A DNA stretch of 64,000 nucleotides from an uncultured Chloroflexia bacterium (GTDB taxonomy: Bacteria > Chloroflexota > Limnocylindria > QHBO01). Below are positions 38,502-59,443 of the stretch, piece after piece (position 1 is the stretch's first letter; each line of letters opens with the position of its first letter). The notes beneath the pieces are model-generated. The model searched no databases. It saw only the letters and a program-made list of their open reading frames with translations, and was not told the DNA's origin. The DNA lies in NCBI GenBank assembly GCA_963799675.1, contig CAWCXQ010000019.1:261701-325700 (forward strand). The letters are read 5' to 3'. A program made the position numbers and the translations under genes.

Positions 38502-39014
38502 GCGTGCAGGTCGATCTCGGGACTCGCGGACGAGGCAACCTTGTGATTCCGAGCGAGCCACGCGGCGACGCACGGAGCGGGTGCGGGTTATCGCCCTGCC
38601 CCCCGGGGTGCCGCACCGTTGCTCTAATGCAACGGTATGGTGAAATAGACTCTAGTGCTTTTGGCATGAGTCTGATATGGTTCGGTGCTCAAAAGTGCGC
38701 GGAGCGTGGTGGCGCGCAGTGCCCAGTGGCCACCGCGACGGCCGGGACTGGATGCCTGATGACGGTCTCCTCTCGACCTCGTGTTCAGGAGTCCGGGATG
38801 TGCCCAGCCGGTCGCCATTCATTGCTACGCGTCGCCCTGCTCGCTGACACTCGAAGTGTCTTAGCAATTCGGCCACGGTCTTGGCCGGGCCCTGCGCCTC
38901 TCGCGCGGGGCGAGGGCACGAACTTCCACATGCCGTCCCAACGAGACTGATTGCGAGCCAGGGCTGGTCGAGTCGGTCTCTTTTTTCTGTCCTCAACCAT
39001 CCGAGGCTAAAGAA

Positions 39015-42000
39015 ATGATCTCCCGCCAACTGGGTGCCGCGCAGAGAGCGGGGACCTTCGTCGCGATAGGCGCACTTCTCGCAACAACGGCGGCCGCCGT
39101 TGCCCCTGGGCGGGTGCTTGCAGCAGCCCCAAATCCTCCCACGGTCAATGCGCCAACTAATGGAGCGACTGGCCAAAGCACTTCCCCGACCCTCAGCGTG
39201 CACGTCTCGGACCCAGACAACAATTCGATGACGGTCACATTTTCGGCCGCCCATACCTCAGCGGCGTGTTCGTCCAGATCGCCCAAAAAACGAGCGTCGC
39301 GTCGAATTCGAATACGACGGCCACATGGTCCACCTTGGGCGCTGGTCAACTGCACCAGTGGTACGTCACCGTCTCCGACGGCACGTCCACAATCACAGGG
39401 CCGACGTGGACATTCCGCACAACGGCGAGCGCCGATCCGGTATTTGTCGGAGTCGGCGACATCGCAGCGTGCACCAACACGAATGACACGGACACAGGCA
39501 ACGTCATCAGCGGCGTCGACGGCAATATCTTTACTGTCGGCGATAACGTCTACCCGGACGGAACGGCGGCTGACTTCACGAACTGCTACGCGCCGACCCC
39601 ATGGGGTAGCAGTGCCATCAAGTCGCGGACCCGCCCGATTCCCGGCAACCACGATTGGAACACCGGCAATCTGAACGGGTACACCGGATATTTCGGCGCC
39701 AATGCGACCGATGCGAATGGCAAGAGTTACTACAGCTACAACATCGCTGGCAGCAACTGGCACGTCGTTAATCTTGATAGCGAATGCGCACTCGTCCCAG
39801 GTGGGTGTGCGGCCGGTTCCCCACAGGAGATCTGGCTCAAGGCAGACCTGCAGGCGAATCTGTCCAAGAACGTAATCGCTTTGTTCCACAAGCCTCGGTT
39901 CAGCAGCGCTGGCACCAACCTCACCGACCTTCAGGCGTTCGTGGACGACATGTATACGGCGCGCGTGGACATCGCGATGGACGGTCATGACCACGTGTAT
40001 GAACGGATTGCGCAGCTAAATGCCACCGGAACCCCGGATCCGGGCCGTGGGATCCGCTACTTCACAGTTGGAATGGGTGGCGACAGCCACCAGGGATTCG
40101 GGACACCGATCGCCGGCAGCGAGGTTCGCGACGCAAGTTCCTACGGGATTCTGAAGCTGACACTTCACGCCACAACGTATGATTGGAAGTACCTACCGGT
40201 CGCCGGCAGCACATTTACCGACTCAGGTACCGCATCCGTCGTCGCCGCCGGCGTCAACCAGGCGCCGGTCGCGGTCGCCGACAGCTACAGCACGCCGCTC
40301 AACACGGCCAAGGTCGTGGCGGCGCCCGGCGTCCTCGCCAACGACACCGATGCCGACGGCAATCCGCTGACCGCGATCCTTAACGCCAACGTGACCCACG
40401 GCAGCCTGAGCCTGGCCGCCAATGGTGGTTTCACCTATACCCCGACATCCGGCTACACCGGGCCGGACTCGTTTACCTACCACGCCAACGACGGCACCCT
40501 CAACTCGAACACCGTGACGGTCAGCCTGACGGTCGGCGGAGCGGTCACCAATCAGGCCCTCCAGCTCAACGGCTCGAGCCAGTACGCGACCCTGGGTTCC
40601 ACCAGCCAGCTGCGCAGCGCGACCTTCACCGTCGAACTGTGGTTCAAGCGGACCGGGGCCGGGGTCGGCACCAACACCGGCACCGGCGGCATCCCCGATG
40701 CCATCCCGCTCATCACCAAGGGCCGAGCGGAGGGCGAGACCCCGGCTGCCGATATCAACTACTTCCTGGGCATCGACGCCAGCAGCGGCCAGCTGGTGGC
40801 CGACTTCGAGGAGGGCGCGGGCGGCGCGAGCCCCAGCCTCAACCACCCGATCACGGCGGCCACCGTGGTGACCCTGAACGTGTGGCACCACGCCGCGGCG
40901 ACCTATGACGGCTCGACCTGGAACCTCTATCTCGACGGGGTGCTCGACGGCACCCTGGCCGTCGGGGTCACCCATCCGGCCAACGCCGCGACGGCCGTCC
41001 TGACCACGGTCGGCACCGCCGATAACACGGCCGGCGTGGTCGACGGCTTCTTCGCCGGCGTGGTCGACGAGGCCCGCATCTGGAGCGTGGCCCGGACGGC
41101 AACCCAGATCAACGCCACCCGGAACGTTCAGGTCACCACCGCCCAGACCAACCTGCTGGGCGTCTGGAACATGAACGAGGGCAGCGGCACGACCCTCGCC
41201 GACAACTCGGGCAACGGCATCACCGGCACGGCCGTCGGGGCGCCGACCTGGGTGGCCGGCTTCCCGCTGTCCGGCAACCAGGCGCCGGTCGCGGTCGCCG
41301 ACAGCTACAGCACGCCGCTCAACACGGCCAAGGTCGTGGCGGCGCCCGGCGTCCTCGCCAACGACACCGATGCCGACGGCAATCCGCTGACCGCGATCCT
41401 TAACGCCAACGTGACCCACGGCAGCCTGAGCCTGGCCGCCAATGGTGGTTTCACCTATACCCCGACATCCGGCTACACCGGGCCGGACTCGTTTACCTAC
41501 CACGCCAACGACGGCACCCTCAACTCGAACACCGTGACGGTCAGCCTGACGGTCGGCGGAGCGGTCACCAATCAGGCCCTCCAGCTCAACGGCTCGAGCC
41601 AGTACGCGACCCTGGGTTCCACCAGCCAGCTGCGCAGCGCGACCTTCACCGTCGAACTGTGGTTCAAGCGGACCGGGGCCGGGGTCGGCACCAACACCGG
41701 CACCGGCGGCATCCCCGATGCCATCCCGCTCATCACCAAGGGCCGAGCGGAGGGCGAGACCCCGGCTGCCGATATCAACTACTTCCTGGGCATCGACGCC
41801 AGCAGCGGCCAGCTGGTGGCCGACTTCGAGGAGGGCGCGGGCGGCGCGAGCCCCAGCCTCAACCACCCGATCACGGCGGCCACCGTGGTGACCCTGAACG
41901 TGTGGCACCACGCCGCGGCGACCTATGACGGCTCGACCTGGAACCTCTATCTCGACGGGGTGCTCGACGGCACCCTGGCCGTCGGGGTCACCCATCCGGC

Positions 42001-43003
42001 CAACGCCGCGACGGCCGTCCTGACCACGGTCGGCACCGCCGATAACACGGCCGGCGTGGTCGACGGCTTCTTCGCCGGCGTGGTCGACGAGGCCCGCATC
42101 TGGAGCGTGGCCCGGACGGCAACCCAGATCAACGCCACCCGGAACGTTCAGGTCACCACCGCCCAGACCAACCTGCTGGGCGTCTGGAACATGAACGAGG
42201 GCAGCGGCACGACCCTCGCCGACAACTCGGGCAACGGCATCACCGGCACGGCCGTCGGGGCGCCGACCTGGGTGGCCGGCTTCCCGCTGTCCGCCGCCGC
42301 CCCGGTCTCCTATCCGGCGGTCATCCGCAACTCGGTCTGGTACCTGCGCGACAGCAACACCAGCGCGCCGGGCACGATCACCAGCTTCGCCTACGGCAAC
42401 CCGACCGACACCCCGATCTTCGGCGACTGGAATAACGACGGCGTGGCGACGCCGGGTGTGGTGCGGGTGACCGGCGGCTCGCTGACCTGGTACCTGCGCA
42501 ACACCAATAGCGCCGGCGCACCCGACACCATCTTCGCCTGGGGCGCGGCCACCGACAAGCCGCTGGTCGGCGACTGGGACGGCAACGGCACTGACACGCC
42601 GGGCCTGCTGCGCGCCAGCAACCACTGGATCCTGTCCAACTCGGGCGACGGCACGAGCGGGATCGTCGACTTCTTCTGGGGCAGCGGCGCCGCCAACGAG
42701 AAGCCGATCGTGGGCGACTGGGACGGGAACGGCAGCGACACCCCCGGCTTGGTGCGGGCCGGCAACTGGTGGATCCTCAAAACCAGCAACGACGCGAGCA
42801 GCACCGTCACCGACTTCTTCTGGGGCACCACCAGCGAGACCGCCTGGGTGGTGGGCGACTGGAACGGCGACGGCAGCGACAACCCCGGCATCCTGCGTGG
42901 CAACTGGTGGCTGCTGCGCGACTCCAACACCGGCGGCGGGGCCACCGACCGCGACTTCTTCTTCGGCCTCAACAGCGACACCTTCCGCGTGTGGGCGCAG
43001 TGA
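39015..43003 (+). CDS. Giant secreted surface protein B: signal peptide, Ig-like domain, calcineurin-like metallophosphoesterase, 2 x (cadherin-like + LamG), shared C-terminal module; single frame break in a T-run at 39240-39243
   Basis: RBS GAGG before ATG 39015. Signal 'FVAIGALLATTAAAVAPGRVLAA'. 'PTLSVHVSDPDNNSMTVTF' continues as 'GRPYLSGVFVQIAQ..QWYVTVSDGTSTITGPTWTFRT' in the -1 frame (ORF 39266-43003, 1245 aa). 'GVGDIAAC', 'GDNVYPDG', 'PGNHDW', 'DGHDHVYER'. Confidence 0.85.
40255..42292 (+). repeat. Tandem coding repeat, 2 x 1020 bp (340 aa: cadherin-like domain + LamG domain)
   Basis: 'ggcgccggtcgcggtcgccgacagc' occurs at 40261 and 41281. The two 340-aa translations are identical. Confidence 0.9.
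42287..43003 (+). repeat. Shared C-terminal cassette, copy 2 (ends ...RVWAQ*)
   Basis: Same 717-bp sequence as 37785-38501 except for the last two sense codons (gcg cag versus gcc aag). Confidence 0.9.
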
Positions 43004-43032
43004 GCAATAACAATCAAGAGGGAGGCACTGTG

Positions 43033-45612
43033 ATGTTCGTCGGCAGTCGTTCTCGCCGCACGGACGCGGCGATGCGGGGGAGCACGCTTGCCGTGACCCT
43101 CGCGTTGTTGGCCACTCTGCTTGCGGTTGTCGCGCCAACCGCCGTCTCGGCCGCCGGCCAGCAGGCCCTCCAGCTCAACGGCTCGAGCCAGTACGCGACC
43201 CTGGGTTCCACCAGCCAGCTGCGCAGCGCGACCTTCACCGTCGAACTGTGGTTCAAGCGGACCGGGGCCGGGGTCGGCACCAACACCGGCACCGGCGGCA
43301 TCCCCGATGCCATCCCGCTCATCACCAAGGGCCGAGCGGAGGGCGAGACCCCGGCTGCCGATATCAACTACTTCCTGGGCATCGACGCCAGCAGCGGCCA
43401 GCTGGTGGCCGACTTCGAGGAGGGCGCGGGCGGCGCGAGCCCCAGCCTCAACCACCCGATCACGGCGGCCACCGTGGTGACCCTGAACGTGTGGCACCAC
43501 GCCGCGGCGACCTATGACGGCTCGACCTGGAACCTCTATCTCGACGGGGTGCTCGACGGCACCCTGGCCGTCGGGGTCACCCATCCGGCCAACGCCGCGA
43601 CGGCCGTCCTGACCACGGTCGGCACCGCCGATAACACGGCCGGCGTGGTCGACGGCTTCTTCGCCGGCGTGGTCGACGAGGCCCGCATCTGGAGCGTGGC
43701 CCGGACGGCAACCCAGATCAACGCCACCCGGAACGTTCAGGTCACCACCGCCCAGACCAACCTGCTGGGCGTCTGGAACATGAACGAGGGCAGCGGCACG
43801 ACCCTCGCCGACAACTCGGGCAACGGCATCACCGGCACGGCCGTCGGGGCGCCGACCTGGGTGGCCGGCTTCCCGCTGTCCGGCAACCAGGCGCCGGTCG
43901 CGGTCGCCGACAGCTACAGCACGCCGCTCAACACGGCCAAGGTCGTGGCGGCGCCCGGCGTCCTCGCCAACGACACCGATGCCGACGGCAATCCGCTGAC
44001 CGCGATCCTTAACGCCAACGTGACCCACGGCAGCCTGAGCCTGGCCGCCAATGGTGGTTTCACCTATACCCCGACATCCGGCTACACCGGGCCGGACTCG
44101 TTTACCTACCACGCCAACGACGGCACCCTCAACTCGAACACCGTGACGGTCAGCCTGACGGTCGGCGGAGCGGTCACCAATCAGGCCCTCCAGCTCAACG
44201 GCTCGAGCCAGTACGCGACCCTGGGTTCCACCAGCCAGCTGCGCAGCGCGACCTTCACCGTCGAACTGTGGTTCAAGCGGACCGGGGCCGGGGTCGGCAC
44301 CAACACCGGCACCGGCGGCATCCCCGATGCCATCCCGCTCATCACCAAGGGCCGAGCGGAGGGCGAGACCCCGGCTGCCGATATCAACTACTTCCTGGGC
44401 ATCGACGCCAGCAGCGGCCAGCTGGTGGCCGACTTCGAGGAGGGCGCGGGCGGCGCGAGCCCCAGCCTCAACCACCCGATCACGGCGGCCACCGTGGTGA
44501 CCCTGAACGTGTGGCACCACGCCGCGGCGACCTATGACGGCTCGACCTGGAACCTCTATCTCGACGGGGTGCTCGACGGCACCCTGGCCGTCGGGGTCAC
44601 CCATCCGGCCAACGCCGCGACGGCCGTCCTGACCACGGTCGGCACCGCCGATAACACGGCCGGCGTGGTCGACGGCTTCTTCGCCGGCGTGGTCGACGAG
44701 GCCCGCATCTGGAGCGTGGCCCGGACGGCAACCCAGATCAACGCCACCCGGAACGTTCAGGTCACCACCGCCCAGACCAACCTGCTGGGCGTCTGGAACA
44801 TGAACGAGGGCAGCGGCACGACCCTCGCCGACAACTCGGGCAACGGCATCACCGGCACGGCCGTCGGGGCGCCGACCTGGGTGGCCGGCTTCCCGCTGTC
44901 CGCCGCCGCCCCGGTCTCCTATCCGGCGGTCATCCGCAACTCGGTCTGGTACCTGCGCGACAGCAACACCAGCGCGCCGGGCACGATCACCAGCTTCGCC
45001 TACGGCAACCCGACCGACACCCCGATCTTCGGCGACTGGAATAACGACGGCGTGGCGACGCCGGGTGTGGTGCGGGTGACCGGCGGCTCGCTGACCTGGT
45101 ACCTGCGCAACACCAATAGCGCCGGCGCACCCGACACCATCTTCGCCTGGGGCGCGGCCACCGACAAGCCGCTGGTCGGCGACTGGGACGGCAACGGCAC
45201 TGACACGCCGGGCCTGCTGCGCGCCAGCAACCACTGGATCCTGTCCAACTCGGGCGACGGCACGAGCGGGATCGTCGACTTCTTCTGGGGCAGCGGCGCC
45301 GCCAACGAGAAGCCGATCGTGGGCGACTGGGACGGGAACGGCAGCGACACCCCCGGCTTGGTGCGGGCCGGCAACTGGTGGATCCTCAAAACCAGCAACG
45401 ACGCGAGCAGCACCGTCACCGACTTCTTCTGGGGCACCACCAGCGAGACCGCCTGGGTGGTGGGCGACTGGAACGGCGACGGCAGCGACAACCCCGGCAT
45501 CCTGCGTGGCAACTGGTGGCTGCTGCGCGACTCCAACACCGGCGGCGGGGCCACCGACCGCGACTTCTTCTTCGGCCTCAACAGCGACACCTTCCGCGTG
45601 TGGGCCAAGTGA
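43033..45612 (+). CDS. Secreted surface protein C: signal peptide, LamG, cadherin-like, LamG, shared C-terminal module
   Basis: RBS GAGGGAGG 8 nt before ATG 43033, which lies 29 nt after the gene B stop. Signal 'LAVTLALLATLLAVVAPTAVSAA'. 859 aa, uninterrupted. Confidence 0.9.
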   Translation: MFVGSRSRRTDAAMRGSTLAVTLALLATLLAVVAPTAVSAAGQQALQLNGSSQYATLGSTSQLRSATFTVELWFKRTGAGVGTNTGTGGIPDAIPLITKGRAEGETPAADINYFLGIDASSGQLVADFEEGAGGASPSLNHPITAATVVTLNVWHHAAATYDGSTWNLYLDGVLDGTLAVGVTHPANAATAVLTTVGTADNTAGVVDGFFAGVVDEARIWSVARTATQINATRNVQVTTAQTNLLGVWNMNEGSGTTLADNSGNGITGTAVGAPTWVAGFPLSGNQAPVAVADSYSTPLNTAKVVAAPGVLANDTDADGNPLTAILNANVTHGSLSLAANGGFTYTPTSGYTGPDSFTYHANDGTLNSNTVTVSLTVGGAVTNQALQLNGSSQYATLGSTSQLRSATFTVELWFKRTGAGVGTNTGTGGIPDAIPLITKGRAEGETPAADINYFLGIDASSGQLVADFEEGAGGASPSLNHPITAATVVTLNVWHHAAATYDGSTWNLYLDGVLDGTLAVGVTHPANAATAVLTTVGTADNTAGVVDGFFAGVVDEARIWSVARTATQINATRNVQVTTAQTNLLGVWNMNEGSGTTLADNSGNGITGTAVGAPTWVAGFPLSAAAPVSYPAVIRNSVWYLRDSNTSAPGTITSFAYGNPTDTPIFGDWNNDGVATPGVVRVTGGSLTWYLRNTNSAGAPDTIFAWGAATDKPLVGDWDGNGTDTPGLLRASNHWILSNSGDGTSGIVDFFWGSGAANEKPIVGDWDGNGSDTPGLVRAGNWWILKTSNDASSTVTDFFWGTTSETAWVVGDWNGDGSDNPGILRGNWWLLRDSNTGGGATDRDFFFGLNSDTFRVWAK
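43162..45612 (+). repeat. 2451-bp duplicate of 40553-43003 (LamG + cadherin-like + LamG + cassette)
   Basis: The offset is 2609 bp at both ends. The translations are identical apart from the terminal AK versus AQ. Confidence 0.85.
44896..45612 (+). repeat. Shared C-terminal cassette, copy 3 (ends ...RVWAK*)
   Basis: Same 717-bp sequence as copy 1, including gcc aag tga. Confidence 0.9.
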
Positions 45613-48600
45613 GAGACCGGAGAGATGGGCGGCGGGGCGGCGCTGCTCGCCGCCGTCCTCGGGCGGCTCGGGGCGGCGGTCGGACCAGCACCCGCGGAAG
45701 CAGTGGACCGAGCGGCAATATCGCGCTCTCGCTGCCGCCGGTTGTAAGGCGGGTGTCGTTTCTGTGATCGGAAACGGGACTCGTTTCGTCCGTCGATCGC
45801 TTGGAATCCCGCGACGTCGCCGCATATCGGGAAGGAGACTCTGATGTTCCTCCGCAGTCGTTGTCGCCGCGCGGGCGCGGCGATGCGGGGGGCCACGCTT
45901 GCCGTGAGCTTCGCGCTTGTGGCCACGTTGTTCTCCGGGGTCGCGGGCCGCCCGCTATTGGCCGCCGGCCAGCAGGCGCTCCAGCTGAACGGCTCGAGCC
46001 AGTACGCGACCCTCGGCAACACCAGTCAGCTGCGCAGCGCGACGTTCACGGTCGAGTTGTGGTTCAAGCGGACCGGGGCCGGGCTCGGGACGAGCACCGG
46101 TAGCGGCGGCATCGCGAGCGCGATCCCCTTGATCACGAAGGGTCGGGCAGACGGTGAGTCTCCGGCAGCCGATATCAACTACTTCCTGGGCATCGACGCG
46201 ACGAGCGGAAAGCTCGTGGGGGACTTCGAGGAGGGCGCCAGCGGGGCCACACCCAGCGCGAACCACCCCATCACCGGTACGGCCGTCATCGCCGTCGGTG
46301 CGACATGGCACCACGCGGCCGCGACCTATGATGGTTCGACCTGGAGCCTCTATCTCGATGGCGTCCTTGACGGCACCCTGGCCGTTGGCAGGCCAGCCAA
46401 CGCAGCGACAGCAACGCTCACGTCTCTGGGGAGTGCGCTCACCAATGCAGGTGTCGCGGCCGGCTTCTTCGCGGGCGCTGTCGACGAGGTCCGGATCTGG
46501 AGCGTCGCGCGCACCCTGGCCCAGATCAATGCGACCCGGAACACCGAGATCACGACTCCCCAGACCAACCTGCTGGGCGTTTGGAACCTCAACGAGGGCA
46601 GTGGCACGAGCCTTGCCGACAACTCGGGCAACGCCATCACCGGCACCGCGGTCGGTGTGCCGACCCCGCCGACCTGGACGCCGGGCTTCGATGCCAACCA
46701 GCCTCCGGTCGCCGTGGCCGACAGCTACACGACCGCACAGGACACGGCCAAAGTCGTGGCCGCGCCGGGCGTCCTTGCCAACGACACCGATGCGGAATCC
46801 AACCCGCTGACCGCCTTGCTGGTCGCAAACGTCACCCACGGGACCCTCAGTCTCGCCTCCAACGGCGGCTTCACGTACACGCCGACGACGACCTACAACG
46901 GGCCGGACTCGTTTACCTACAAGGCAAACGACGGCACCAGCGATTCGAATACGGTCACTGTCTCACTTGGCGTTGGGAACCTCGGCATGCAGCTGAACGG
47001 AACCAGCCAGTACGCCACCTTGGGGACGACAGCTCAACTGCGCAGTGCGACGTTCACCGTCGAGCTGTGGTTCAAGCGAACCGGTGCCGGGGTCGGCACG
47101 GGTACCGGGACCGGCGGAATCACTAGCGCGATTCCTTTGATCACGAAGGGACGAATGGAGGCCGAGACCGCCGCCGCAGACGTGAACTATTTCCTGGGCA
47201 TCGACGCCAGCAGCGGCAAGCTCGTGGCCGACTTCGAGGAAGGCCAGACCGGGGCCACCCCGAGCGCGAACCATCCGATCACCGCCACCACCGTGGTGAC
47301 GCAGAACGTCTGGCACCATGCCGCGGCGACGTATGACGGGACCACCTGGAACCTCTACCTTGACGGCATCCTCGACGGCACCCTCGCCGTCGGCGCCACC
47401 CATCCAGCCAATGCCGCGACCGCGGTGCTGACCACGGTCGGCAGCTCGCTCGACACCACCGGCACGCCCGCCGGCTTCTTCGCCGGCGCCGCCGACGAGG
47501 TCCGGATCTGGAGCGTCGCCCGCACGCTCAGCCAGATCAACGCCACCCGGACCGTCGAGGTCACCAGCGCCCAGGCCAACCTCCTCGGCGTCTGGAACCT
47601 CAACGAGGGCGGCGGCACCAGCCTGGCCGATAAGTCGGGCAACGGGATCACCGGGACCGCGGTCGGCTCGCCGATCCGGGTCGCAGGCTTCGTCGTGCCG
47701 GACAGCACGCCACCCGCGGCGCCCACTGGTCTGGTCGCGACGCCCACTCTCACCGGGATCGACCTGTCCTGGAACGCGAACTCCGAGTCCGATCTGGCGG
47801 GCTATAACATCTATCGCGGCACAACACCTGGCGTCGGGACGGGTGGCACACCCATAAATGGCGCTCTTCTCACCAGTCCCACGTACACCGACGGCTCCCT
47901 GGCTTCGAGCAGCCTGACCTCGGGCCAGACCTACTACTACGTCGTGACCGCGGTCGACACGTCCGCCAACAAGTCGGCTGCGTCCAACGAAGACTCCGCT
48001 GTCGCACCAGCGGTCAACCGTGGCCTTCAACTCAACGGCACAAGCCAATACGTGACGTTCGGCGCAGCGCCCGGCCTCGACGCTTCGAGCTTCACGATCG
48101 AGCTTTGGTTTTACCAGACTGGCGCCGGCACCCCTACCAGCACTGGCAGTACCGGTCTCAACGCCGTCCCGCTGGTGACAAAGGGGCGCGCTGAGGCCGA
48201 AGCCTCGAACGTCGACATGAACTGGTTCCTGGGGTCGATGCCGCGACGAACAAGCTCGCCGCGGACTTCGAGGAGGGCGCATCGGGGACCACGCCGGGCG
48301 CGAACCACCCGATCATCGGCAGCACGATCGTAACGATGAACGCGTGGCACCACGCTGCTGCAACGTATAACGGCACGGCCTGGAGGCTCTACCTCGATGG
48401 TGCTGCCGACGGGACCCTGACCGTCGGGGAGCCTGCCCGTTCTGACAGCATCCAGCACGCGGCGCTCGGCACGGCCATGACCTCCGCCGGCGCCGCCGCG
48501 GGCTTCTTCGCGGGGGTCGTCGATGAGGCGCGGGTCTGGAGCGTTGCCCGAACGCGCGCGCAGATCCAGGCGACCAAGAACACCGAGCTGACCGGCGCGC

Positions 48601-48732
48601 AGACGACCTGAGGGCCGCTGGGGCCTCAACGAGGGCAGCGGCACGATCGCGGCCGATACGTCCACGAACGGTCGAAACGGAACGGTGGTTGCCGCGCCAA
48701 CGCGCGTCGCGGGCTTCGTGCCGCCTCCTGCC

Positions 48733-50616
48733 GTCAACCAGGCGCCGGTCTGCTCGACGGTGGCCCTCAGCACGCCCGTCAACACCGCCGGTGATGCGGC
48801 ACCCTCGTGCACCGACGCCGAGAACGACACGCTCACCTACGCCATCGTCGCCCAGCCGACCCACGGACGGCCTCGGTCGTGGCCGGCCAGCTGCACTACG
48901 TGCCGGCCAGCGGCTACGAGGGTTCCGACAGCTTCACCTACAAGGCCAACGACGGCAGCCTCGACTCCAACACCGCCACCGTCAACGTGACGGTGACCCA
49001 CGTCAACCAGGCGCCGGTCTGCTCGACGGTGGCCCTCAGCACGCCCGTCAACACCGCCGGTGATGCGGCACCCTCGTGCACCGACGCCGAGAACGACACG
49101 CTCACCTACGCCATCGTCGCCCAGCCGACCCACGGCACGGCCTCGGTCGTGGCCGGCCAGCTGCACTACGTGCCGGCCAGCGGCTACGAGGGTTCCGACA
49201 GCTTCACCTACAAGGCCAACGACGGCAGCCTCGACTCCAACACCGCCACCGTCAACGTGACGGTGACCCACGTCAACCAGGCGCCGGTCTGCTCGACGGT
49301 GGCCCTCAGCACGCCCGTCAACACCGCCGGTGATGCGGCACCCTCGTGCACCGACGCCGAGAACGACACGCTCACCTACGCCATCGTCGCCCAGCCGACC
49401 ACGGCACGGCCTCGGTCGTGGCCGGCCAGCTGCACGACGTGCCGGCCAGCGGCTACGAGGGTTCCGACAGCTTCACCTACAAGGCCAACGACGGCAGCCT
49501 CGACTCCAACACCGCCACCGTCAACGTGACGGTGACCCACGTCAACCAGGCGCCGGTCTGCTCGACGGTGGCCCTCAGCACGCCCGTCAACACCGCCGGT
49601 GATGCGGCACCCCGTGCACCGACGCCGAGAACGACACGCTCACCTACGCCATCGTCGCCCAGCCGACCCACGGCACGGCCTCGGTCGTGGCCGGCCAGCT
49701 GCACTACGTGCCGGCCAGCGGCTACGAGGGTTCCGACAGCTTCACCTACAAGGCCAACGACGGCAGCCTCGACTCCAACACCGCCACCGTCAACGTGACG
49801 GTGACCCACGTCAACCAGGCGCCGGTCTGCTCGACGGTGGCCCTCAGCACGCCCGTCAACACCGCCGGTGATGCGGCACCCTCGTGCACCGACGCCGAGA
49901 ACGACACGCTCACCTACGCCATCGTCGCCCAGCCGACCCACGGCACGGCCTCGGTCGTGGCCGGCCAGCTGCACTACGTGCCGGCCAGCGGCTACGAGGG
50001 TTCCGACAGCTTCACCTACAAGGCCAACGACGGCAGCCTCGACTCCAACACCGCCACCGTCAACGTGACGGTGACCCACGTCAACCAGGCGCCGGTCTGC
50101 TCGACGGGGCCCTCAGCACGCCCGTCAACACCGCCGGTGATGCGGCACCCTCGTGCACCGACGCCGAGAACGACACGCTCACCTACGCCATCGTCGCCCA
50201 GCCGACCCACGGCACGGCCTCGGTCGTGGCCGGCCAGCTGCACTACGTGCCGGCCAGCGGCTACAAGGGTTCCGACAGCTTCACCTACAAGGCCAACGAC
50301 GGCAGCCTCGACTCCAACACCGCCACCGTCAACGTGACGGTGACCCACGTCAACCAGGCGCCGGTCTGCTCGACGGTGGCCCTCAGCACGCCCGTCAACA
50401 CCGCCGGTGATGCGGCACCCTCGTGCACCGACGCCGAGAACGACACGCTCACCTACGCCATCGTCGCCCAGCCGACCCACGGCACGGCCTCGGTCGTGGC
50501 CGGCCAGCTGCACTACGTGCCGGCCAGCGGCTACGAGGGTTCCGACAGCTTCACCTACAAGGCCAACGACGGCAGCCTCGACTCCAACACCGCCACCGTC
50601 AACGTGACGGTGACAG
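48733..50616 (+). repeat. Tandem coding repeat, 7 copies x 270 bp (90 aa cadherin-like unit with CS...SC cysteine pair)
   Basis: 'gtcaaccaggcgccggtctgctcgacgg' occurs at 48733, 49002, 49272, 49541, 49810, 50080, 50349. Spacings are 269/270/269/269/270/269, so four copies each lack one base at a different position. Confidence 0.9.
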
Positions 50617-50663
50617 CGCCCACCGAGCCCGTGAGCCTGCCGGCCGTGATCCGCGACGGGGCC

Positions 50664-51329
50664 TGGTACCTGCGCGACAGCAACACCAGCGCGCCGGGCA
50701 CGATCACCAGCTTCGCCTACGGCAACCCGACCGACACCCCGATCTTCGGCGACTGGAATAACGACGGCGTGGCGACGCCGGGTGTGGTGCGGGTGACCGG
50801 CGGCTCGCTGACCTGGTACCTGCGCAACACCAATAGCGCCGGCGCACCCGACACCATCTTCGCCTGGGGCGCGGCCACCGACAAGCCGCTGGTCGGCGAC
50901 TGGGACGGCAACGGCACTGACACGCCGGGCCTGCTGCGCGCCAGCAACCACTGGATCCTGTCCAACTCGGGCGACGGCACGAGCGGGATCGTCGACTTCT
51001 TCTGGGGCAGCGGCGCCGCCAACGAGAAGCCGATCGTGGGCGACTGGGACGGGAACGGCAGCGACACCCCCGGCTTGGTGCGGGCCGGCAACTGGTGGAT
51101 CCTCAAAACCAGCAACGACGCGAGCAGCACCGTCACCGACTTCTTCTGGGGCACCACCAGCGAGACCGCCTGGGTGGTGGGCGACTGGAACGGCGACGGC
51201 AGCGACAACCCCGGCATCCTGCGTGGCAACTGGTGGCTGCTGCGCGACTCCAACACCGGCGGCGGGGCCACCGACCGCGACTTCTTCTTCGGCCTCAACA
51301 GCGACACCTTCCGCGTGTGGGCGCAGTGA
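50664..51329 (+). repeat. Shared C-terminal cassette, copy 4 (5'-truncated identity; ends ...RVWAQ*)
   Basis: Identical to the other copies from 'tggtacctgcgcgacagc' onward. The preceding ~15 codons are diverged (APTEPVSLPAVIRDGA versus AAAPVSYPAVIRNSV). Confidence 0.85.
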
Positions 51330-51368: not shown

Positions 51369-53285
51369 GTGAACTGGACGCCGCGTCTCCGCGCGCTGCG
51401 CCCCGCAAGTCGCGGGGCGACGCTGGTGTTGCTCGCCACCATGAGCGCCTCCATGCTCCTCAGCGTGCGACTTGGGGTGGCGCGGGCCGTAGAGACCGTC
51501 GCTCCACTTGCGCCACTGGCAGCGTCAACGACGACCGAGGATAAGCCGCAGTCGAAGCTGTGGACGTATGCCGGCAGCTGGTGGCTGGTCGCGCCGACGA
51601 CGACGGCGGCCACGCCAGCCGGCACCTGGATCTGGCGACTTGGTACCGACAAGGCGTGGCTTGCGGTGCTGCGGATCTCGACGCGAACGGACACGCACGC
51701 GGACGTGAAAGCCATCGGCAATGTCGCTCACATCCTGTTGTACGGACCCGTGCCCGAGCTCTACTCCGCGCAGTACAACGCGGCGAGCGGCAGCTATGAG
51801 CCATGGAGCACCCGGCCCACGGCCACCGCCATCACGCTGACCGACAGCGAGACGGCCAGTATCGACGTGGACTCCACTGGGCGCATGTGGTTGGCCACCG
51901 AGTCCGGTACGAACCTGAACGTCTTCCACAGCGCGTCCCCGTACACGACCTTCGCTGGCCCGATCACACTCGCCAACAACATCGCCTCGGACGACATTGG
52001 TGTCGTCAGCGCGCTGCCAAACAACACTATCGGTGTCCTCTGGTCGAACCAATCGACCCAGCGCTTTGGCTTCAAGACCCACGTCGATGGCGCGAACGTC
52101 GCAACTTGGACTGCGGACGAGGTGCCCGCCTCCCAATCCGCTCTGAACGTTGGTCTCGGGATGGCCGACGATCACCTGAATCTTGCCGTTGCATCGGACG
52201 GGACGCTGTACGCGGCGGTCAAGACGAGCTACGACACCGCCGGTTACCCGAAGATCGCGCTGCTCGTGCGGCGGCCAACGGGCACCTGGGACAACCTCTA
52301 CGAAGTGGACACAGCCGGGACACGGCCGCTCGTCGTCCTGAACGAACTGACCGGGAGCCTCCGTGTGGTCTACACCTCCTCGGAGGGCTTCAATCCGATC
52401 ATTTACAAGGAATCGGCACTCGCGCCTATCAGCTTCGGCCCCCGGCAGACCTTGCTGGGCGCGGCCTTCAACGATGCGTCGAGTACGAAGCAGAACTGGA
52501 CCGATAGCCTCGCCATCGTGGCGAGCAATGCATCCAACAGTATTGGTGGCGCCATCTTCGAGACACCGCCGCCCGCCGCCGCCCCGGTCTCCTATCCGGC
52601 GGTCATCCGCAACTCGGTCTGGTACCTGCGCGACAGCAACACCAGCGCGCCGGGCACGATCACCAGCTTCGCCTACGGCAACCCGACCGACACCCCGATC
52701 TTCGGCGACTGGAATAACGACGGCGTGGCGACGCCGGGTGTGGTGCGGGTGACCGGCGGCTCGCTGACCTGGTACCTGCGCAACACCAATAGCGCCGGCG
52801 CACCCGACACCATCTTCGCCTGGGGCGCGGCCACCGACAAGCCGCTGGTCGGCGACTGGGACGGCAACGGCACTGACACGCCGGGCCTGCTGCGCGCCAG
52901 CAACCACTGGATCCTGTCCAACTCGGGCGACGGCACGAGCGGGATCGTCGACTTCTTCTGGGGCAGCGGCGCCGCCAACGAGAAGCCGATCGTGGGCGAC
53001 TGGGACGGGAACGGCAGCGACACCCCCGGCTTGGTGCGGGCCGGCAACTGGTGGATCCTCAAAACCAGCAACGACGCGAGCAGCACCGTCACCGACTTCT
53101 TCTGGGGCACCACCAGCGAGACCGCCTGGGTGGTGGGCGACTGGAACGGCGACGGCAGCGACAACCCCGGCATCCTGCGTGGCAACTGGTGGCTGCTGCG
53201 CGACTCCAACACCGGCGGCGGGGCCACCGACCGCGACTTCTTCTTCGGCCTCAACAGCGACACCTTCCGCGTGTGGGCGCAGTGA
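51369..53285 (+). CDS. Secreted surface protein E: signal peptide, ~400-aa domain of unknown type (beta-propeller-like impression), shared C-terminal module
   Basis: Uninterrupted 638-aa ORF starting at GTG 51369. Signal 'ATLVLLATMSASMLLSVRLGVARA'. N-domain segments 'GRMWLATESGTNLNVFHS', 'IGVLWSNQSTQRFGFK', 'DGTLYAAVKTSYD', 'LRVVYTSSEG'. Confidence 0.85.
   Translation: MNWTPRLRALRPASRGATLVLLATMSASMLLSVRLGVARAVETVAPLAPLAASTTTEDKPQSKLWTYAGSWWLVAPTTTAATPAGTWIWRLGTDKAWLAVLRISTRTDTHADVKAIGNVAHILLYGPVPELYSAQYNAASGSYEPWSTRPTATAITLTDSETASIDVDSTGRMWLATESGTNLNVFHSASPYTTFAGPITLANNIASDDIGVVSALPNNTIGVLWSNQSTQRFGFKTHVDGANVATWTADEVPASQSALNVGLGMADDHLNLAVASDGTLYAAVKTSYDTAGYPKIALLVRRPTGTWDNLYEVDTAGTRPLVVLNELTGSLRVVYTSSEGFNPIIYKESALAPISFGPRQTLLGAAFNDASSTKQNWTDSLAIVASNASNSIGGAIFETPPPAAAPVSYPAVIRNSVWYLRDSNTSAPGTITSFAYGNPTDTPIFGDWNNDGVATPGVVRVTGGSLTWYLRNTNSAGAPDTIFAWGAATDKPLVGDWDGNGTDTPGLLRASNHWILSNSGDGTSGIVDFFWGSGAANEKPIVGDWDGNGSDTPGLVRAGNWWILKTSNDASSTVTDFFWGTTSETAWVVGDWNGDGSDNPGILRGNWWLLRDSNTGGGATDRDFFFGLNSDTFRVWAQ
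52575..53285 (+). repeat. Shared C-terminal cassette, copy 5 (ends ...RVWAQ*)
   Basis: Identical to copy 2 from 'gccgccgccccggtctcc' to the stop. Its 3' flank matches the flank of copy 1. Confidence 0.9.
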
Positions 53286-53371
53286 GCGTGCAGGTCGATC
53301 TCGGGACTCGCGGACGAGGCAACCTTGTGATTCAGGGCGAGCCACGCAGCAGTTCCGGGTGGTCTTTCTGG

Positions 53372-54010
53372 GTGAGACCGAAGCAGCGAGCCTGGCCATG
53401 GACGTATCGCCGGACCAAGCGAGGCGCTGATATCGCCTTGAGCGTGATTGCGATCGTGCTTCTCATGCCGCTCTTCATCGTCATCGCGCTTGCCGTCTGG
53501 CTTGACTCTGGCCTTCCGATTATCTATGGCTGCCAGCGTCTCGGCCTGGGTGGTCAGCCGATTAGGGTGCTGAAGTTCCGCACCATGACCAATGGCAGCC
53601 ATCACCAGCTTGCCGCGCTGCTAACCGCGAACGAGGAGCAACGCATTGAATATGCGGCGCGGCGCAAGCTACGCCGAGACCCGCGTCGCACGCGAGTCGG
53701 CCGCTTACTTCGTCGTGCATCTGTCGACGAGCTACCGCAGCTTCTGAACGTCTTGGCTGGAGACATGAGTCTCGTGGGGCCGCGGCCGTATCTTGTCGAG
53801 GAGCTCCAGCACCGGCCCGAGGCCAGCGAGCTACTTTCGGTTCGTCCAGGGATGTCCGGGCTCTGGCAGGTGAACGGTCGATCCGAGCGAACGTTCGAAG
53901 AGCGCATCGCACTAGATCTTCACTATGTGCGCTATCAAGGCTTCATTCTCGACGCTGCGATTGCCGGGCGGACGATGGGCGCCGTGCTCAGCGGCCGTGG
54001 AGCGTACTGA
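53372..54010 (+). CDS. Polyprenyl-phosphate sugar transferase (bacterial sugar transferase family, WbaP/WcaJ C-terminal type)
   Basis: '[29 protein letters not shown]', '[10 protein letters not shown]', 'KFRTM', '[32 protein letters not shown]', '[15 protein letters not shown]'. The start is uncertain (GTG at 53281, 53287, 53326 or 53372, all in frame). Confidence 0.8.
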
Positions 54011-54215
54011 GCGGCAATCTGCCGGCCACCGGCCGGCGACCCGCGACTCCGATCGGCCGCACCCTCCCTCGAGGCTGCGAGCCCCGAGTTGTCTGAGGGC
54101 CGGGTTACTTCTTCTTCTCTTTCTCTCTCTCGTGACGGACCGGTCACTCGCGCCTAGCGCTGTTGAACTGTCCGCAGCACTAATCGTCAACGGCTAGAGT
54201 ACGTCGACTCATCAA

Positions 54216-55730
54216 GTGCCCAGGAGGTGGACGGCAGCGCACGTGTCGACCACCAAGCAGCCACATAGAGTCGAATCGCGCCCGTTGTCGGTCCTGGCCG
54301 CTTGGAACGCCGGCAGTTGGTTGGCGTTGGCCCTCTACAACTTTGCTCTCACGGCGGCGGTCTACCGAGCGGTCGGTGCCGGTGAATACGGGGTTTGGGC
54401 GACGATCGTCGCCATACGCACCATCCTTCTGCTCGTCGACGGCGGCCTCACCCTTGGAGTTGTTCGCGATGCCGCACGCTCGAGCCGCAGCCGTCTGGCG
54501 GCCGACCGCGTCTTCGCGGCGCGCCGCCTCTTCCTGCTGCTTGGGGTCTGTGTGGCTGCAGTGGGCATCACTGGTGCCGGAGTACCGGCGTGGTTCCTGG
54601 AACTGAATGGATCGGCCGCCGCGTCCGCGACATTGGCGACTGCTTTGCTTGGACTCGAGGCTGCCGTCACATTGTGGGGCAGCCCCTATGCTGGCGAGTT
54701 ACGCGGCCATCAGCGCTACGACCTTGTAGTGCTCGGGTCGTCCACACTGTTGCTCGTGGGACTTCCCATGGCAATCATTGCCGCGCCCGCGTATGGCATC
54801 GTCGGGGTGGGAGTGGCGGCGCTGATTGGGCGGGTCTCCGCGTCCATCGTCGTGCGCCATGCAGCGCTACGAGGAGAACCCGCCCGGTCGCCCGCCGGGC
54901 AACCCTCAGGGCCGCTCGCACATGTATTCCGGTTCGCGGCGCCGATGTGGATTGTCGCCGCGGCGGGACAGCTCAGTTATGGCACAGATGTGCCCCTGGT
55001 GGGTGCGCTCTTTGGCGCACCGCAGGCAGGTGCCTACTCGTTAGGTGCGGTCCTGCCAGCCGCCGCTGTCGGCCTGCTCTACGTCCTTCTGGACGCGGGG
55101 TTTCCGCGCCTGGCGGCGGCGGGTGCCGGGCGCCAGGCGCTCGGGACGCGTCTCGCGTTCGTTGGATGTATGCTCGCCGCGCTCGGCTTCCTAACCCTGA
55201 TCGCCCATGCGAGCGCCCTACTCGTCTTCTGGGTCGGCGATGCGCCGCAGCTCGCGTTGACGGTCATGGCGATCTATGCGCTGGCGTGGTCACTCAACGT
55301 ACCAACTCACGTCCTGATCCTGATGGCACTGGCTCGTGGACAGCATGGGGTTCTCGCCCGAATCGCCATTGGAGAGGCGACGGCGAGCCTGATCATCGGT
55401 GTCGCGCTCGCGCTCCTCGTTGGCCCGGTCGGCCTCGCCATCGGAACGCTGGTGGCGTTGGCTGTATCCAATCTGGTTGTGACGCCTGCAGTCGTCCTGC
55501 CTCGCCTCGGCCTGGGCGGGAGGCGGCTGGCGAGGGCGGCCGGCACCGGATACTTGGCGGGAGCCGCCGCCGCCCTTCCCGCGGCGATCGTAACGAGGGC
55601 GGTTGAGATGTCGCCGACCGCAGAAGTCATCGCCGCAGCCGTTGGGCTGTTCGTGACGATTGCCCTCGGCCTATACGTCTCGCCGCTGTGGATGCGTGAC
55701 GCCCTGGCGCTACCCGTGCAGCAGGACTAG
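54216..55730 (+). CDS. Polysaccharide/oligosaccharide flippase (Wzx-like, MOP superfamily)
   Basis: Intact 504-aa ORF with about 12-14 hydrophobic helices. N-terminal 'FALTAAVYRAVGAGEYGVWATIVAI' is typical of polysaccharide biosynthesis (Polysacc_synt) proteins. Confidence 0.7.
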   Translation: MPRRWTAAHVSTTKQPHRVESRPLSVLAAWNAGSWLALALYNFALTAAVYRAVGAGEYGVWATIVAIRTILLLVDGGLTLGVVRDAARSSRSRLAADRVFAARRLFLLLGVCVAAVGITGAGVPAWFLELNGSAAASATLATALLGLEAAVTLWGSPYAGELRGHQRYDLVVLGSSTLLLVGLPMAIIAAPAYGIVGVGVAALIGRVSASIVVRHAALRGEPARSPAGQPSGPLAHVFRFAAPMWIVAAAGQLSYGTDVPLVGALFGAPQAGAYSLGAVLPAAAVGLLYVLLDAGFPRLAAAGAGRQALGTRLAFVGCMLAALGFLTLIAHASALLVFWVGDAPQLALTVMAIYALAWSLNVPTHVLILMALARGQHGVLARIAIGEATASLIIGVALALLVGPVGLAIGTLVALAVSNLVVTPAVVLPRLGLGGRRLARAAGTGYLAGAAAALPAAIVTRAVEMSPTAEVIAAAVGLFVTIALGLYVSPLWMRDALALPVQQD

Positions 55731-56253
55731 CTACGTCGTAGCACCACAACGGTGATCCGCCCGCGAGGCTTGAGGCAGTCGCCAAAAACTCGTGATCTGT
55801 ATGAGGTTGATGGTTCATTGTCACCTGAACGCGGTCTCCCGCCGACTGGGCCGAGGCGGACGACCTCATCGGGGTGGAGGCCGCCTTGGTGGAGCCGGCC
55901 TGCCTGATCCTCCAACATCAGCGGGCGCTGCTACCGCAACGTGCGGTCCGCGCGCCGCGAGGGTTTCGGGGCGCAGGATGTGCGGGTCGAACTCTCCAGA
56001 CCGACGACGCAGCGCCTACCGCTGCCGGACATCTCCCGGGTCGTGCGATGGCGGGCATGCTCGCAGCCGGCCCTATCGCGCACAGACGACTCGAGGTCTT
56101 GGCCAGCCCGCGGAGCCGCGACGGCTTGCGTGGATCGATGCCGTTACAATGACCGTCGCCCTCAAGTGCCCTCCAGGGAAGGACGCCGCCGACCCTCAGC
56201 CGGCGCTGAGCGCGTTGTAATGTCACCAATCTCGTGGGAGACATAACGAGCGG

Positions 56254-58053
56254 ATGCGGCTGTTCCAGCTCCTGAGCCAATGGAGGCTGATCCTCGCGGC
56301 CGACTGCGCGCTGCTGATCGTCGTCCTTGGGTGGCAACGCGTCATGCACCAGCCGCAGATCTTGCAGCTCGGAGCGGGAGTTCTGCTTCTTGGGGCATTC
56401 GGCTGGCTGGCCGTTGCGTGGTTCCGCGCAGCGGTAGCGATCGCGCTTCTCGAGCTGACGGTGGGCGGAGCCAGCGGGCATTGGGCGGTCTTTCCAGGCG
56501 GCCTAACTGGGAGGATGTTGGTCGACGGGATTGTCGTCGGCGGCGCCATTGGCGCGCTTGTCGGCGCACACCGACGCACGGGGCAGTGGCACCTGGGTCG
56601 CTACGGCCTACACGCCATTTTGATAGCCCTGGTGCTCCCAAGCGTCTGGATGACGCTCGGGCTGCTGAACGGAAATCGTCCGGCCAACGTGATTGGCGAT
56701 GGGAATGGACAGTTCGCCTTCCTCTTGACCCTGCCCCTTCTGGTGATGATCCGCGACGGCCAGGCGGACTGGATACGCCGCTGGCTCCTGATCGCATGTG
56801 CCGTCAACGCCATCGTCACCGCAGTGTTGATTGCCGTCAGCGTCCCGGGGTTCGTTAGCGCGTGGCCCACCCTCAATCGCGTCCTGCTCGAGGAACTCGG
56901 CATGGGTGGCGCGGTTGGCTACATGGCAAATGGCGCGTATCGGCTATACCTCGGAAGCGGGCTCTATCTGCAAGTCGGGCTGGCCCTAGTGACCTGGCAC
57001 CTCATGGAGCGCCGTTCGTCGACCGTCTGGCTCTGGCTGCTTTATGCGCTCATCTGGGCTGACATCATTGCCACTTACACGCGAGGCTTCTGGCTTGGCG
57101 CTACCTTTGCTGTAGTGGCTGTGGTTGCGCTGGCCGCGACCAACCTCCGCCGACCCGCCCAACTCCTGGGTGCGAGCGGAGGCCTGTTTGTTATCGGCTC
57201 CGCCGTTGGGGCGGCGGTCGGGTTCTCCTTGCCGGGCTATGTCTTTGGGCGCTTGAGTGGCTCTTTGAACCTGCCGAACTTTGGCCCCGGCGGCCCGCCA
57301 ATTGACATCCCTCCGCCAACTGCGCCCCTGCCACAGCCGTTCAACCTCGCGCTCAGTCCCGAGGCGGCCATCGTCGTCGCGTGGCTGGTGGTCGCGATCG
57401 TCGTCGCTCGCGCCCTGTTGCATGAGGCGGGCAGCGGCGGTGGACGGCGGATCGCAACCTGGATTGGCTCCAGTGCTCTCGCTCTCGCGATGATCGTGCT
57501 CCCGGTCGCGCTCCCGAACCGGGCGGCGGCAAGTGACCCAACCGTCACGCCAGCACCGACGGCTGACGGAACCCAGCCGAAGGACGACGTCGCCGACCAG
57601 ATCCGCGCCGTCCAGTTGCGGGTCCTGCTCCGCCAATTTATTGCGAAGCCGATCGTCGGCCACGGGTTCGGCGCCGTGGCACCGGACTACCCGTACAGCG
57701 ATTCGTACTCATACGAGCTGGGCTTCCTCGATATCGGGTACAAGACGGGCGCTGTTGGCCTCCTGCTGTTCCTGTCCTATCCGCTCCGATTAGTGTTCGA
57801 CGCAGTACGCGTTCGGTACTTTTCGAAACCGCCTCCCCGGGGTCTCGCACTACGCGGCACCGCCCCGGTGATCGCCGTGACGCTCGCAACGTTGCTCACG
57901 GGAGCCACGGATCCCTATGTCCTGGCCGCATTTGGACTCATGCCGATCCTGATCGGTATCGCCTGGCTGGAGCCCGAGCGGACTCCGGTTCTGGCGGTCG
58001 CCTCGCACCGACACCCGAATGATCCCGGAGCCGGCGAACGTCGTCCGTGCTGA
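56254..58053 (+). CDS. O-antigen ligase/polymerase-like membrane protein (Wzy_C domain)
   Basis: Intact 599-aa polytopic ORF. 'IIATYTRGFWLGATFAVVAVVAL' (Wzy_C core) and 'PIVGHGFGAV' after a large Pro-rich loop. Confidence 0.7.
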   Translation: MRLFQLLSQWRLILAADCALLIVVLGWQRVMHQPQILQLGAGVLLLGAFGWLAVAWFRAAVAIALLELTVGGASGHWAVFPGGLTGRMLVDGIVVGGAIGALVGAHRRTGQWHLGRYGLHAILIALVLPSVWMTLGLLNGNRPANVIGDGNGQFAFLLTLPLLVMIRDGQADWIRRWLLIACAVNAIVTAVLIAVSVPGFVSAWPTLNRVLLEELGMGGAVGYMANGAYRLYLGSGLYLQVGLALVTWHLMERRSSTVWLWLLYALIWADIIATYTRGFWLGATFAVVAVVALAATNLRRPAQLLGASGGLFVIGSAVGAAVGFSLPGYVFGRLSGSLNLPNFGPGGPPIDIPPPTAPLPQPFNLALSPEAAIVVAWLVVAIVVARALLHEAGSGGGRRIATWIGSSALALAMIVLPVALPNRAAASDPTVTPAPTADGTQPKDDVADQIRAVQLRVLLRQFIAKPIVGHGFGAVAPDYPYSDSYSYELGFLDIGYKTGAVGLLLFLSYPLRLVFDAVRVRYFSKPPPRGLALRGTAPVIAVTLATLLTGATDPYVLAAFGLMPILIGIAWLEPERTPVLAVASHRHPNDPGAGERRPC

Positions 58054-59051
58054 TCACCATATCTCTCGTCACATTCAACGGCATGCGCTGGCTGCCCGCC
58101 TGCCTCGAGGCCATTGCGGCTCAGACACATCGCGATGTTGAGGTGATTGTCCTTGACAATGCCTCGTCAGACGGATCGGTGACCATGCTCAGATCCCAAG
58201 CCGATGCCGGCCGGATCAAGCTTATCGAGTCAGACCGGAATCTGGGGTACGCCGCGGGACACAATCTCGTCATTCTGCAGTCCGCTGGCGAGCTAGTGTG
58301 TTTGCTGAATCAGGACGTCATCCTGGACCCGCGATTCCTCGCCGAGGCAGCCGTGGCATTCGAGACTTCGCCTCGCACCGGGGGGGTGCAAGGCCTCGTC
58401 TACCGCCTGGGCCCTGACGTGCGGCCCATGGCGATCGTCGACACGACGGGACTGCAGATCTTCCGCAACAGGCGGGTTGTGAGCCGCAGCCAGGGGACGC
58501 TCGACGGCGGCCCGAGGGAGGCCGGGCCAGTCTTTGGCGCCGACGGGCCGTGCCCGGTCTATCTGCGTACCGCCCTCGAGGATGCCGCCATCGCGGGTCT
58601 GCGCCAGGAAACCGAATACCTCGACGCGGACTTCTTCGCATACAAGGAGGACGTCGACCTTGCGTGGCGGCTTCAGCTGGCTGGTTGGCAAACGACCTAT
58701 CTTCCGAGCGCGGTCGCGTGGCACGCCCGGTCCGCAGCAGAACCGGCGCGCGCTACCTTGCGGGGCTGGATCGCCCACCGACGTGCGACCCCGGGCTGGA
58801 TTCGGCGCATTTCGTGGCGAAATCATCGCCTCATGCAGGTCAAGAACGAGGTCCCCTCGCTCTACCTTCGCGACATCGGCCCGATCGCGATCCGCGAACT
58901 TGCGTCGATGCTCATGCTGGCGCTGGTGGACGTTCGTGACCTCGTGGCGGTGGTCGACATGATCCGCCTCCTGCCGACTGCGCTTCGCAAACGCCGGATG
59001 CGGGCCAAGCACCCGGCCGATCGCGCCCGGCTGGCGCGTTGGCTGACGTGA
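58047..59051 (+). CDS. Family 2 glycosyltransferase
   Basis: Intact 334-aa ORF whose GTG start overlaps the upstream stop by 7 nt. 'ISLVTFNGMRWLPACLEAIAAQTHRDVEVIVLDNASSDGS', 'NLGYAAGHN', 'LLNQDV', 'EDVDLAWR'. Confidence 0.85.
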   Translation: MLITISLVTFNGMRWLPACLEAIAAQTHRDVEVIVLDNASSDGSVTMLRSQADAGRIKLIESDRNLGYAAGHNLVILQSAGELVCLLNQDVILDPRFLAEAAVAFETSPRTGGVQGLVYRLGPDVRPMAIVDTTGLQIFRNRRVVSRSQGTLDGGPREAGPVFGADGPCPVYLRTALEDAAIAGLRQETEYLDADFFAYKEDVDLAWRLQLAGWQTTYLPSAVAWHARSAAEPARATLRGWIAHRRATPGWIRRISWRNHRLMQVKNEVPSLYLRDIGPIAIRELASMLMLALVDVRDLVAVVDMIRLLPTALRKRRMRAKHPADRARLARWLT

Positions 59052-59443
59052 TAAGCACAGCGAACGCGACCCGCACTCGTAGGGACTATGCTTTACCACT
59101 CTTGACGGGCTCCTCTGTGATCGCTGGCGCAAGCCCGAGATCCAGCCAGACGTTCTCAAGAGCGACTCAGGAAAGTCGCGCCGCTCACTGGTCGACCTTG
59201 CCTGCCCAGATCGAGCGGTGCTCGAATCGCCACGAAGCGCTACCGCGGCGACAGGGGCCAGCTTGGAGCCACATCCCCGTCCCAACCTTACAAGGCAATC
59301 CGTACTCTCACCGAGCGCAAAGGGGCTGCCTCCTAGACACAAATCGGAGGCGCGGCTAAGGTCCGCCTCTCGACCGCCACCTGGACGGCGACGTGGACAG
59401 CACCAGCCAATGAACTCAAAAGCCGGGCGCGCGGAGTGGAAAA

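Follow-up and report, generated by a model that had tools for sequence, protein, structure and literature searches.

We found that five neighbouring genes of an uncultured Chloroflexia bacterium end in almost the same DNA, in spite of bodies that are diverged in some of them and unrelated in others. The genes lie in a stretch of 64,000 nucleotides (positions 261,701 to 325,700 of contig CAWCXQ010000019.1, assembly GCA_963799675.1), which we call the window and whose own numbering is used throughout. Its region from 33 to 53 kb contains five tandem genes on the forward strand, named A to E, and the 3' end of each is a common tail of about 0.7 kb that encodes a C-terminal domain of roughly 225 amino acids; a translated search found exactly five such tails in the window. 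We think it likely that the tails are kept identical by homologous recombination between the copies, that gene D had most of its own tail overwritten in this way, and that the domain anchors the proteins on a glycan of the envelope. There is good support for homogenisation of the tails by recombination, be it gene conversion or unequal crossing-over.

The step in identity is seen in gene D when it is compared with its paralogue C. We aligned by codons C (43030-45612) with the body of D (45844-47706) plus the tail of D (50616-51329). The two bodies are 78.1% identical in nucleotides and 78.0% in amino acids, with a synonymous divergence (dS) of 0.70 and a non-synonymous divergence (dN) of 0.148, and the linker of 16 codons that precedes the break has about 60% nucleotide identity (dS 0.82, dN 0.38), whereas dS and dN in the tail are only 0.006 and 0.002. 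In sliding windows of 90 nt the identity of C and D ranges between 60 and 90% along the body, then stays at 100% once 50676 is reached. The longest identical run between the two genes spans 660 nt. When the mismatch positions were shuffled 10,000 times, the longest run obtained was 87 nt, and the body itself contains none above 32 nt; at the match rate of the body, the chance of 660 straight matches is about 1e-71. The last site private to D is 50662, and tggtacctgcgcgac begins at 50664. The codons directly upstream of this break, PVSLPAVIRDGA, correspond in diverged form to PVSYPAVIRNSV of the other genes. They fit the strand 'PGxxR...W' that recurs in the repeats of the tail, and in the structure model presented below they fall in the first beta-strand of the domain (strand residues 7-13). 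Because these codons are homologous to the start of the other tails and are modelled as a strand of the domain, D formerly had its own tail, which was then partly overwritten.

Most of what a preliminary description, made from the letters alone, had said of gene D fits these results. It had put the amino acid identity of C and D at roughly three-quarters, with many synonymous differences, had seen the identity start abruptly at tggtacctgcgcgac, with a step near 50664, and had taken the preceding 15 or so codons (16 by our count) for a diverged tail start. It also recognized the body of D as a diverged paralogue of C, although the homologous part is about 1.86 kb long instead of the 2.3 kb it proposed. 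The extent it gave to D (45844-51329) is the one used here, but the gene as assembled has six frame breaks and is not a single open reading frame (ORF). Finally, the last 666 bp of D, described as identical to those of the other four genes, are so in B and E and differ by a dinucleotide in A and C.

This dinucleotide is the sole polymorphism of the tails. When the five genes are anchored at their stop codons, all have the same base at every site from -666 to -7, and only positions -6 and -5 differ, which changes the end of the protein (AQ* with GC, AK* with CA). The site is 5-6 nt away from where homology ends on the 3' side, and may have survived because conversion tracts cannot easily reach there. 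The 5' start of the identity, on the other hand, varies by copy (37782 for A, 52573 for E, 50663 for D). Such variable ends are expected from independent recombination tracts, not from a site-specific cassette. The 3' side is equally informative. Genes A and E have a common flank of 62 nt after the stop codon, and yet the last two codons of A agree with those of C and not with those of E. The grouping by dinucleotide (A with C; B with D and E) conflicts with the grouping by flank, giving a mosaic pattern. Moreover, the flank has accumulated 3 mismatches in 62 nt, against 0 in 660 nt of the tail, so that homogenisation of the tail postdates the duplication of the flank.

These observations can be accommodated by a simple sequence of events. 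Homologous recombination among the copies, by gene conversion and possibly by unequal crossing-over, would keep the DNA of the tail identical. In gene D, an old paralogue of C, a tail of the B/E type would have replaced most of the original one; the recombination tract would have ended inside the first strand of the domain, at 50663, sparing 47 nt of the ancestral tail start. Two other origins were rejected. A recent duplication of the whole of gene D is excluded by the dS of 0.70 in the body when compared with 0.006 in the tail. A site-specific cassette, of the integron or shufflon kind, does not agree with 5' boundaries that vary among copies and lack a recurring motif. Concerted evolution instead of simple recent duplication, as the preliminary description had it, is therefore upheld by the contrast in dS, but its footprint is not restricted to the tail.

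Homogenisation indeed extends past the tail and covers 2.45 kb of genes B and C, which are 99.9% identical over 2452 nt (40553-43004 and 43162-45613). A unit of 1020 nt encoding Big_9/cadherin and LamG domains occurs four times in these two genes, complete or partial, at about 100% identity (starts at 40252, 41272, 43162, and 43881). Behind the identity of B and C (40252-45613) lies either a duplication or conversion of gene bodies that is very recent, or uncertainty of the assembly on the number of repeat copies. Internal repeats are also found in gene A, where six tandem FN3 repeats of 279 nt (36150-37794) are 99.4-99.8% identical, and in gene D, between whose body and tail lie some 3 kb, left unmentioned by the preliminary description, with an FN3 domain, a third LamG, and seven Big_9/cadherin-like repeats of 270 nt. 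Outside the window, a protein of 683 amino acids homologous to the body of E (P0131) has at its C-terminus a different FG-GAP-like array, PVPADYDGDGDADIAVFRNGHWYVQGQPPYPQIWGQAGD, in which three units in a row are exactly the same; repeats of this class of proteins are homogenised here as well.

If recombination homogenises the tails within each lineage, they should resemble each other within a genome more than between genomes, and the preliminary description had proposed a comparison of this kind. The closest genome is an uncultured Chloroflexia metagenome-assembled genome (MAG), MFD00032.bin.2.2, from the Microflora Danica collection, assembled from Nanopore reads only with Flye and one round of Medaka. 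It carries, within 73 kb, at least 11 tails borne by different and unrelated bodies; the tails are 95-99% identical in nucleotides among themselves and about 76% (64% in amino acids) to those of the window. The latter are 99.6-100% identical to each other. The tails group by genome and co-vary within genomes, in a comparison that rests on one related genome. The flanking orthologues (the Bac_transf, Wzy-like, and GT2 genes) have 41-65% amino acid identity between the two. Within MFD00032.bin.2.2, 192 of the 276 informative pairs of sites in the tails fail the four-gamete test. In other genomes, the tails of one genome are usually only 45-85% identical in amino acids, suggesting that strong homogenisation is specific to the tandem arrays of this clade. 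We found no relative of the tail between 68% and 100% identity by protein search, and a degenerate DNA pattern for a motif of the tail had no match in metagenome contigs.

Other related loci add some observations. In the related MAG (L001, CAVOJY010000002.1 131366-152076), the bodies that carry tails contain LamG, cadherin, and metallophosphatase domains, Reprolysin_3 and PPC, or unknown domains. Several genes of this locus are fragmented in the gene calls, among them an AMP-binding gene called as two, as would fit Nanopore indels. Its tails, too, vary in a dinucleotide at their very 3' terminus (columns 696-697 of the alignment). At four loci of short-read MAGs (L005, L012, L014, and L032), a short contig ends right where the tail matches. 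This would be expected if tail repeats of high identity break short-read assemblies, and the within-genome identity of tails taken from such MAGs may be biased low.

What is the domain that is kept identical? A scan of the tail against Pfam at E <= 0.01 gave no match, and a sequence search of the PDB gave no relative. The sequence has five repeats, each with a loop motif of the GDWDGDG type. The AlphaFold2 model, built on an alignment of 105 sequences, is all-beta with 19 strands, and has high predicted local (pLDDT 96) and global (pTM 0.91) accuracy scores. Its best matches by Foldseek are FG-GAP propellers, including the N-acetylglucosamine (GlcNAc) lectins AAL2 and PVL, with probabilities up to 1.0 and template-modelling (TM) scores of 0.42-0.52 when normalised to the query; the top matches have seven blades. 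Some homologues of the tail also have a precomputed match to the FG-GAP_3/VCBS family (PF13517). The tail thus models as a putative five-bladed FG-GAP-like beta-propeller, the number of blades being counted from the sequence repeats.

The company that the domain keeps suggests a function. Many of its 1,260 homologues are fused to CHAP, CAP, SpoIID, M23, amidase_2, GH25, or transglycosylase domains, so that the module occurs both in secreted proteins and in enzymes that hydrolyse the cell wall, as anchoring modules do. Because relatives of the tail are fused to peptidoglycan hydrolases, we assign it a putative role as an anchor to surface glycans: it is probably a glycan-binding module, predicted from model and domain context, that retains proteins on the cell surface. 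A literature search for the domain as a wall-binding module returned nothing specific. In the window, genes for polysaccharide biosynthesis follow the array, and the related MAG (L002, 11057-18680) has the same arrangement of this cluster next to tails. One might go further and propose that the tail is an undescribed lectin-like, five-bladed anchor of monoderm Chloroflexia and Actinomycetota, which binds the polysaccharide made by the adjacent syntenic cluster, and that co-evolution of anchor and ligand drives the concerted evolution. The identity of the tails would then be maintained since every surface protein must track the changes in one glycan. We regard this extended proposal as speculative and rather unlikely.

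The quality of the assembly deserves attention before alternatives are weighed. Frame 0 of gene D stops at 48331, and the six breaks in the gene are all of a single base. Two are in the third LamG, of which the one at the G-run is probably a homopolymer deletion caused by a sequencing error; the others are single-base deletions at 48867, 49399, 49613, and 50108, which leave four of the seven Big_9 repeats with 269 nt. Six single-base edits suffice to restore one clean ORF of 1829 amino acids with no other damage. Gene B has one break, at a T-run near 39240. Since the nearest genome is a Nanopore-only MAG assembled with Flye and Medaka, the seven breaks in B and D are probably errors of the long-read consensus and not signs of pseudogenisation. 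A plot of GC content at third codon positions (GC3), made to estimate the rate of frameshifts across the window, was too noisy on these low-complexity proteins.

These errors raise the concern that the tails differ in the organism and were made identical by the long-read consensus, or that repeats were collapsed and copied in assembly or polishing. Single-base breaks at homopolymers and in tandem repeats are typical of Nanopore consensus errors, and the closest genome was polished with Medaka only once. Yet reads of kilobase length span a repeat of 0.7 kb within unique flanks, the copies retain their own dinucleotide and different 5' boundaries, and an artefact would not leave the diverged tail start of D beside a perfect block. 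Besides, the 11 tails of the related MAG keep 1-5% of differences after Flye and Medaka, which indicates that such a pipeline, apparently of the kind used for the window, does not force identity. We find an artefact quite improbable. Selection alone is even harder to reconcile with the data. The tail is a well-folded and conserved domain, as would suit purifying selection or codon bias keeping copies identical without exchange, but synonymous sites are identical too (dS 0.006 in the tail, 0.70 in the body), and the amino acid identity of the domain drops to 64% in the nearest genome and to 45-85% among paralogues elsewhere. This refutes the idea, to which we give practically no credence. A third possibility is that the tails were recently acquired and not homogenised, one gene having donated its 3' module to unrelated genes without tails by illegitimate or flank-mediated recombination. 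In A and E the identity starts where linker and domain begin and the bodies are unrelated, the homologues of the E body elsewhere carry CBM96, LamG, PKD, or the C-terminal domain (CTD) of the type IX secretion system (T9SS) instead of this tail, and the common flank of A and E looks as if tail and flank had moved together. However, the remnant in D shows that at least this gene had an earlier tail, in the related genome, too, tails sit on many different bodies, suggesting an old architecture, and the flank of A and E is more diverged than the tail. Domain shuffling of this kind is, in our view, unlikely as the main explanation.

Several points nevertheless weigh against our preferred reading, that copies of the tail overwrite one another by recombination and anchor their proteins on a glycan. 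The preliminary description named gene conversion as the mechanism; dS and tract ends bear out homogenisation by recombination, but conversion is inseparable from unequal crossing-over between tandem tails. The identity of the tails is read from an assembled consensus in which the frame breaks at seven places in B and D. A and E, where the identity starts at the edge of the domain, may have received their tail recently, and none of the 120 best homologues of the E body carries this tail. The comparison between genomes uses a single relative, whose gene bodies are not one-to-one orthologues of those in the window. A permutation test of the pairwise homoplasy index (PHI) type on the tails of MFD00032.bin.2.2 did not reach significance (p = 0.49), since even neighbouring sites already show saturated incompatibility. 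As for the domain, its similarity to PF13517 amounts to 15.7 bits, below the gathering cut-off of 26.9 (E = 0.024).

The phenomenon itself is of a known kind, and the array is a clean but ordinary example of copies overwriting one another. Concerted evolution by gene conversion occurs among outer-surface paralogues of the Hop and Bab families of Helicobacter pylori. Bacterial paralogue conversion resembles our case by near-zero synonymous divergence beside diverged segments, by sharp and variable tract ends, and by segments that cluster by genome. It differs in that here a discrete C-terminal domain is homogenised on genes with otherwise unrelated domains, within one tandem array of an uncultured Chloroflexia-like genome known from sequence alone. 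The near-identical internal tandem repeats of adhesins, such as alpha C/Rib and SasG/Aap, have a parallel in the 99-100% identical repeats of this locus (279-nt FN3, 1020-nt LamG-cadherin, and 270-nt Big_9), but the identity of the tails is between genes and not within one gene. Conversion between prokaryotic paralogues has been reported for release factors (PMC4530459) and for mtrA (PMC4632066).

The architecture of the proteins has its own parallels. Gram-positive bacteria attach proteins to their wall by choline-binding repeats, SLH domains, CWB2, or LysM. As in these systems, variable bodies here precede one common C-terminal module whose family is also present on peptidoglycan hydrolases, and, as with SLH domains and the genes for secondary cell-wall polymers, a glycan locus adjoins the genes with tails. 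The difference is in the fold, a putative five-bladed FG-GAP-like propeller without a Pfam model above threshold, and in that the binding is predicted. The best structural matches of the tail are the FG-GAP/VCBS propeller lectins PVL of Psathyrella velutina, AAL2 of Agrocybe aegerita, PHL/PLL of Photorhabdus, and Bap1 of V. cholerae, which have seven or eight blades, in contrast to the five repeats of the tail, and 12-19% sequence identity to it.

The five genes encode secreted multidomain surface proteins, with N-termini that by eye resemble signal peptides (Table 1). The body of E (51369-52565) contains a highly conserved domain of about 350 amino acids without a Pfam model, which has 646 homologues across phyla at 50-70% identity; elsewhere these are fused to CBM96, LamG, PKD, or T9SS C-terminal sorting domains. 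A scan for promoters and terminators gave nothing above background. Further along, the window contains a direct repeat of 752 nt at 99% identity (60537-61288 and 62574-63324), which spans two ORFs of 208 amino acids; the one of the two that was scanned (60492-61118) encodes a Big_1 Ig-like domain.

Table 1. Position and content of the features of the tail-gene array and its surroundings in the window
Feature	Position	Strand	Description
Gene A	33291-38501	+	CBM96, three FN3, metallophosphatase, six FN3, tail
Gene A tail	37782-38501	+	
3' flank of A	38502-38563	+	62 nt; matches E flank 53286-53347 with 3 mismatches
Gene B	39015-43003	+	metallophosphatase, two Big_9/cadherin-LamG units, tail; one frame break
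Gene B tail	42284-43003	+	
Gene C	about 43030-45612	+	LamG, Big_9/cadherin, LamG, tail
Gene C tail	44893-45612	+	
Gene D	45844-51329	+	signal peptide, LamG, Big_9/cadherin, LamG, FN3, LamG, seven Big_9 repeats, tail
Gene D body	45844-47706	+	homologous to C but diverged; identity 78.1% (nt) and 78.0% (aa), dS 0.70
D frame break, third LamG	48233-48236	+	frame 0 to frame 2; G-run
Second D frame break, third LamG	48600-48612, near 48609	+	frame 2 to frame 0
Gene D tandem repeats	48732-50617	+	seven 270-nt Big_9/cadherin-like units, about 99.4% identical
Gene D own diverged tail start	50616-50662	+	APTEPVSLPAVIRDGA; about 60% nt identity to other tails; unconverted
Gene D tail block	50663-51329	+	no difference from B and E; 2 nt differ in A and C
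Sole polymorphism among the five tails	51323-51324	+	GC in B, D, E; CA in A, C
Gene E	51369-53285	+	body without Pfam match, then tail
Gene E tail	52573-53285	+	
Polysaccharide-biosynthesis cluster	53051-60454	+	Bac_transf, Wzy_C-like, two GT2 genes, unknown 504-aa protein; directly downstream of array

Our results have consequences for how such loci are read. Genes D and B, split by what are probably sequencing errors, would be miscalled as pseudogenes or fragments, and assemblies from short reads would be likely to collapse or to fragment at repeats of this kind. Long reads make visible a clean and quantifiable case of concerted evolution at the level of a domain in an uncultured soil lineage. 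The domain concerned represents a family of over 1,200 homologues without a Pfam model, whose probable role is to hold proteins and wall hydrolases at the surface of the cell.

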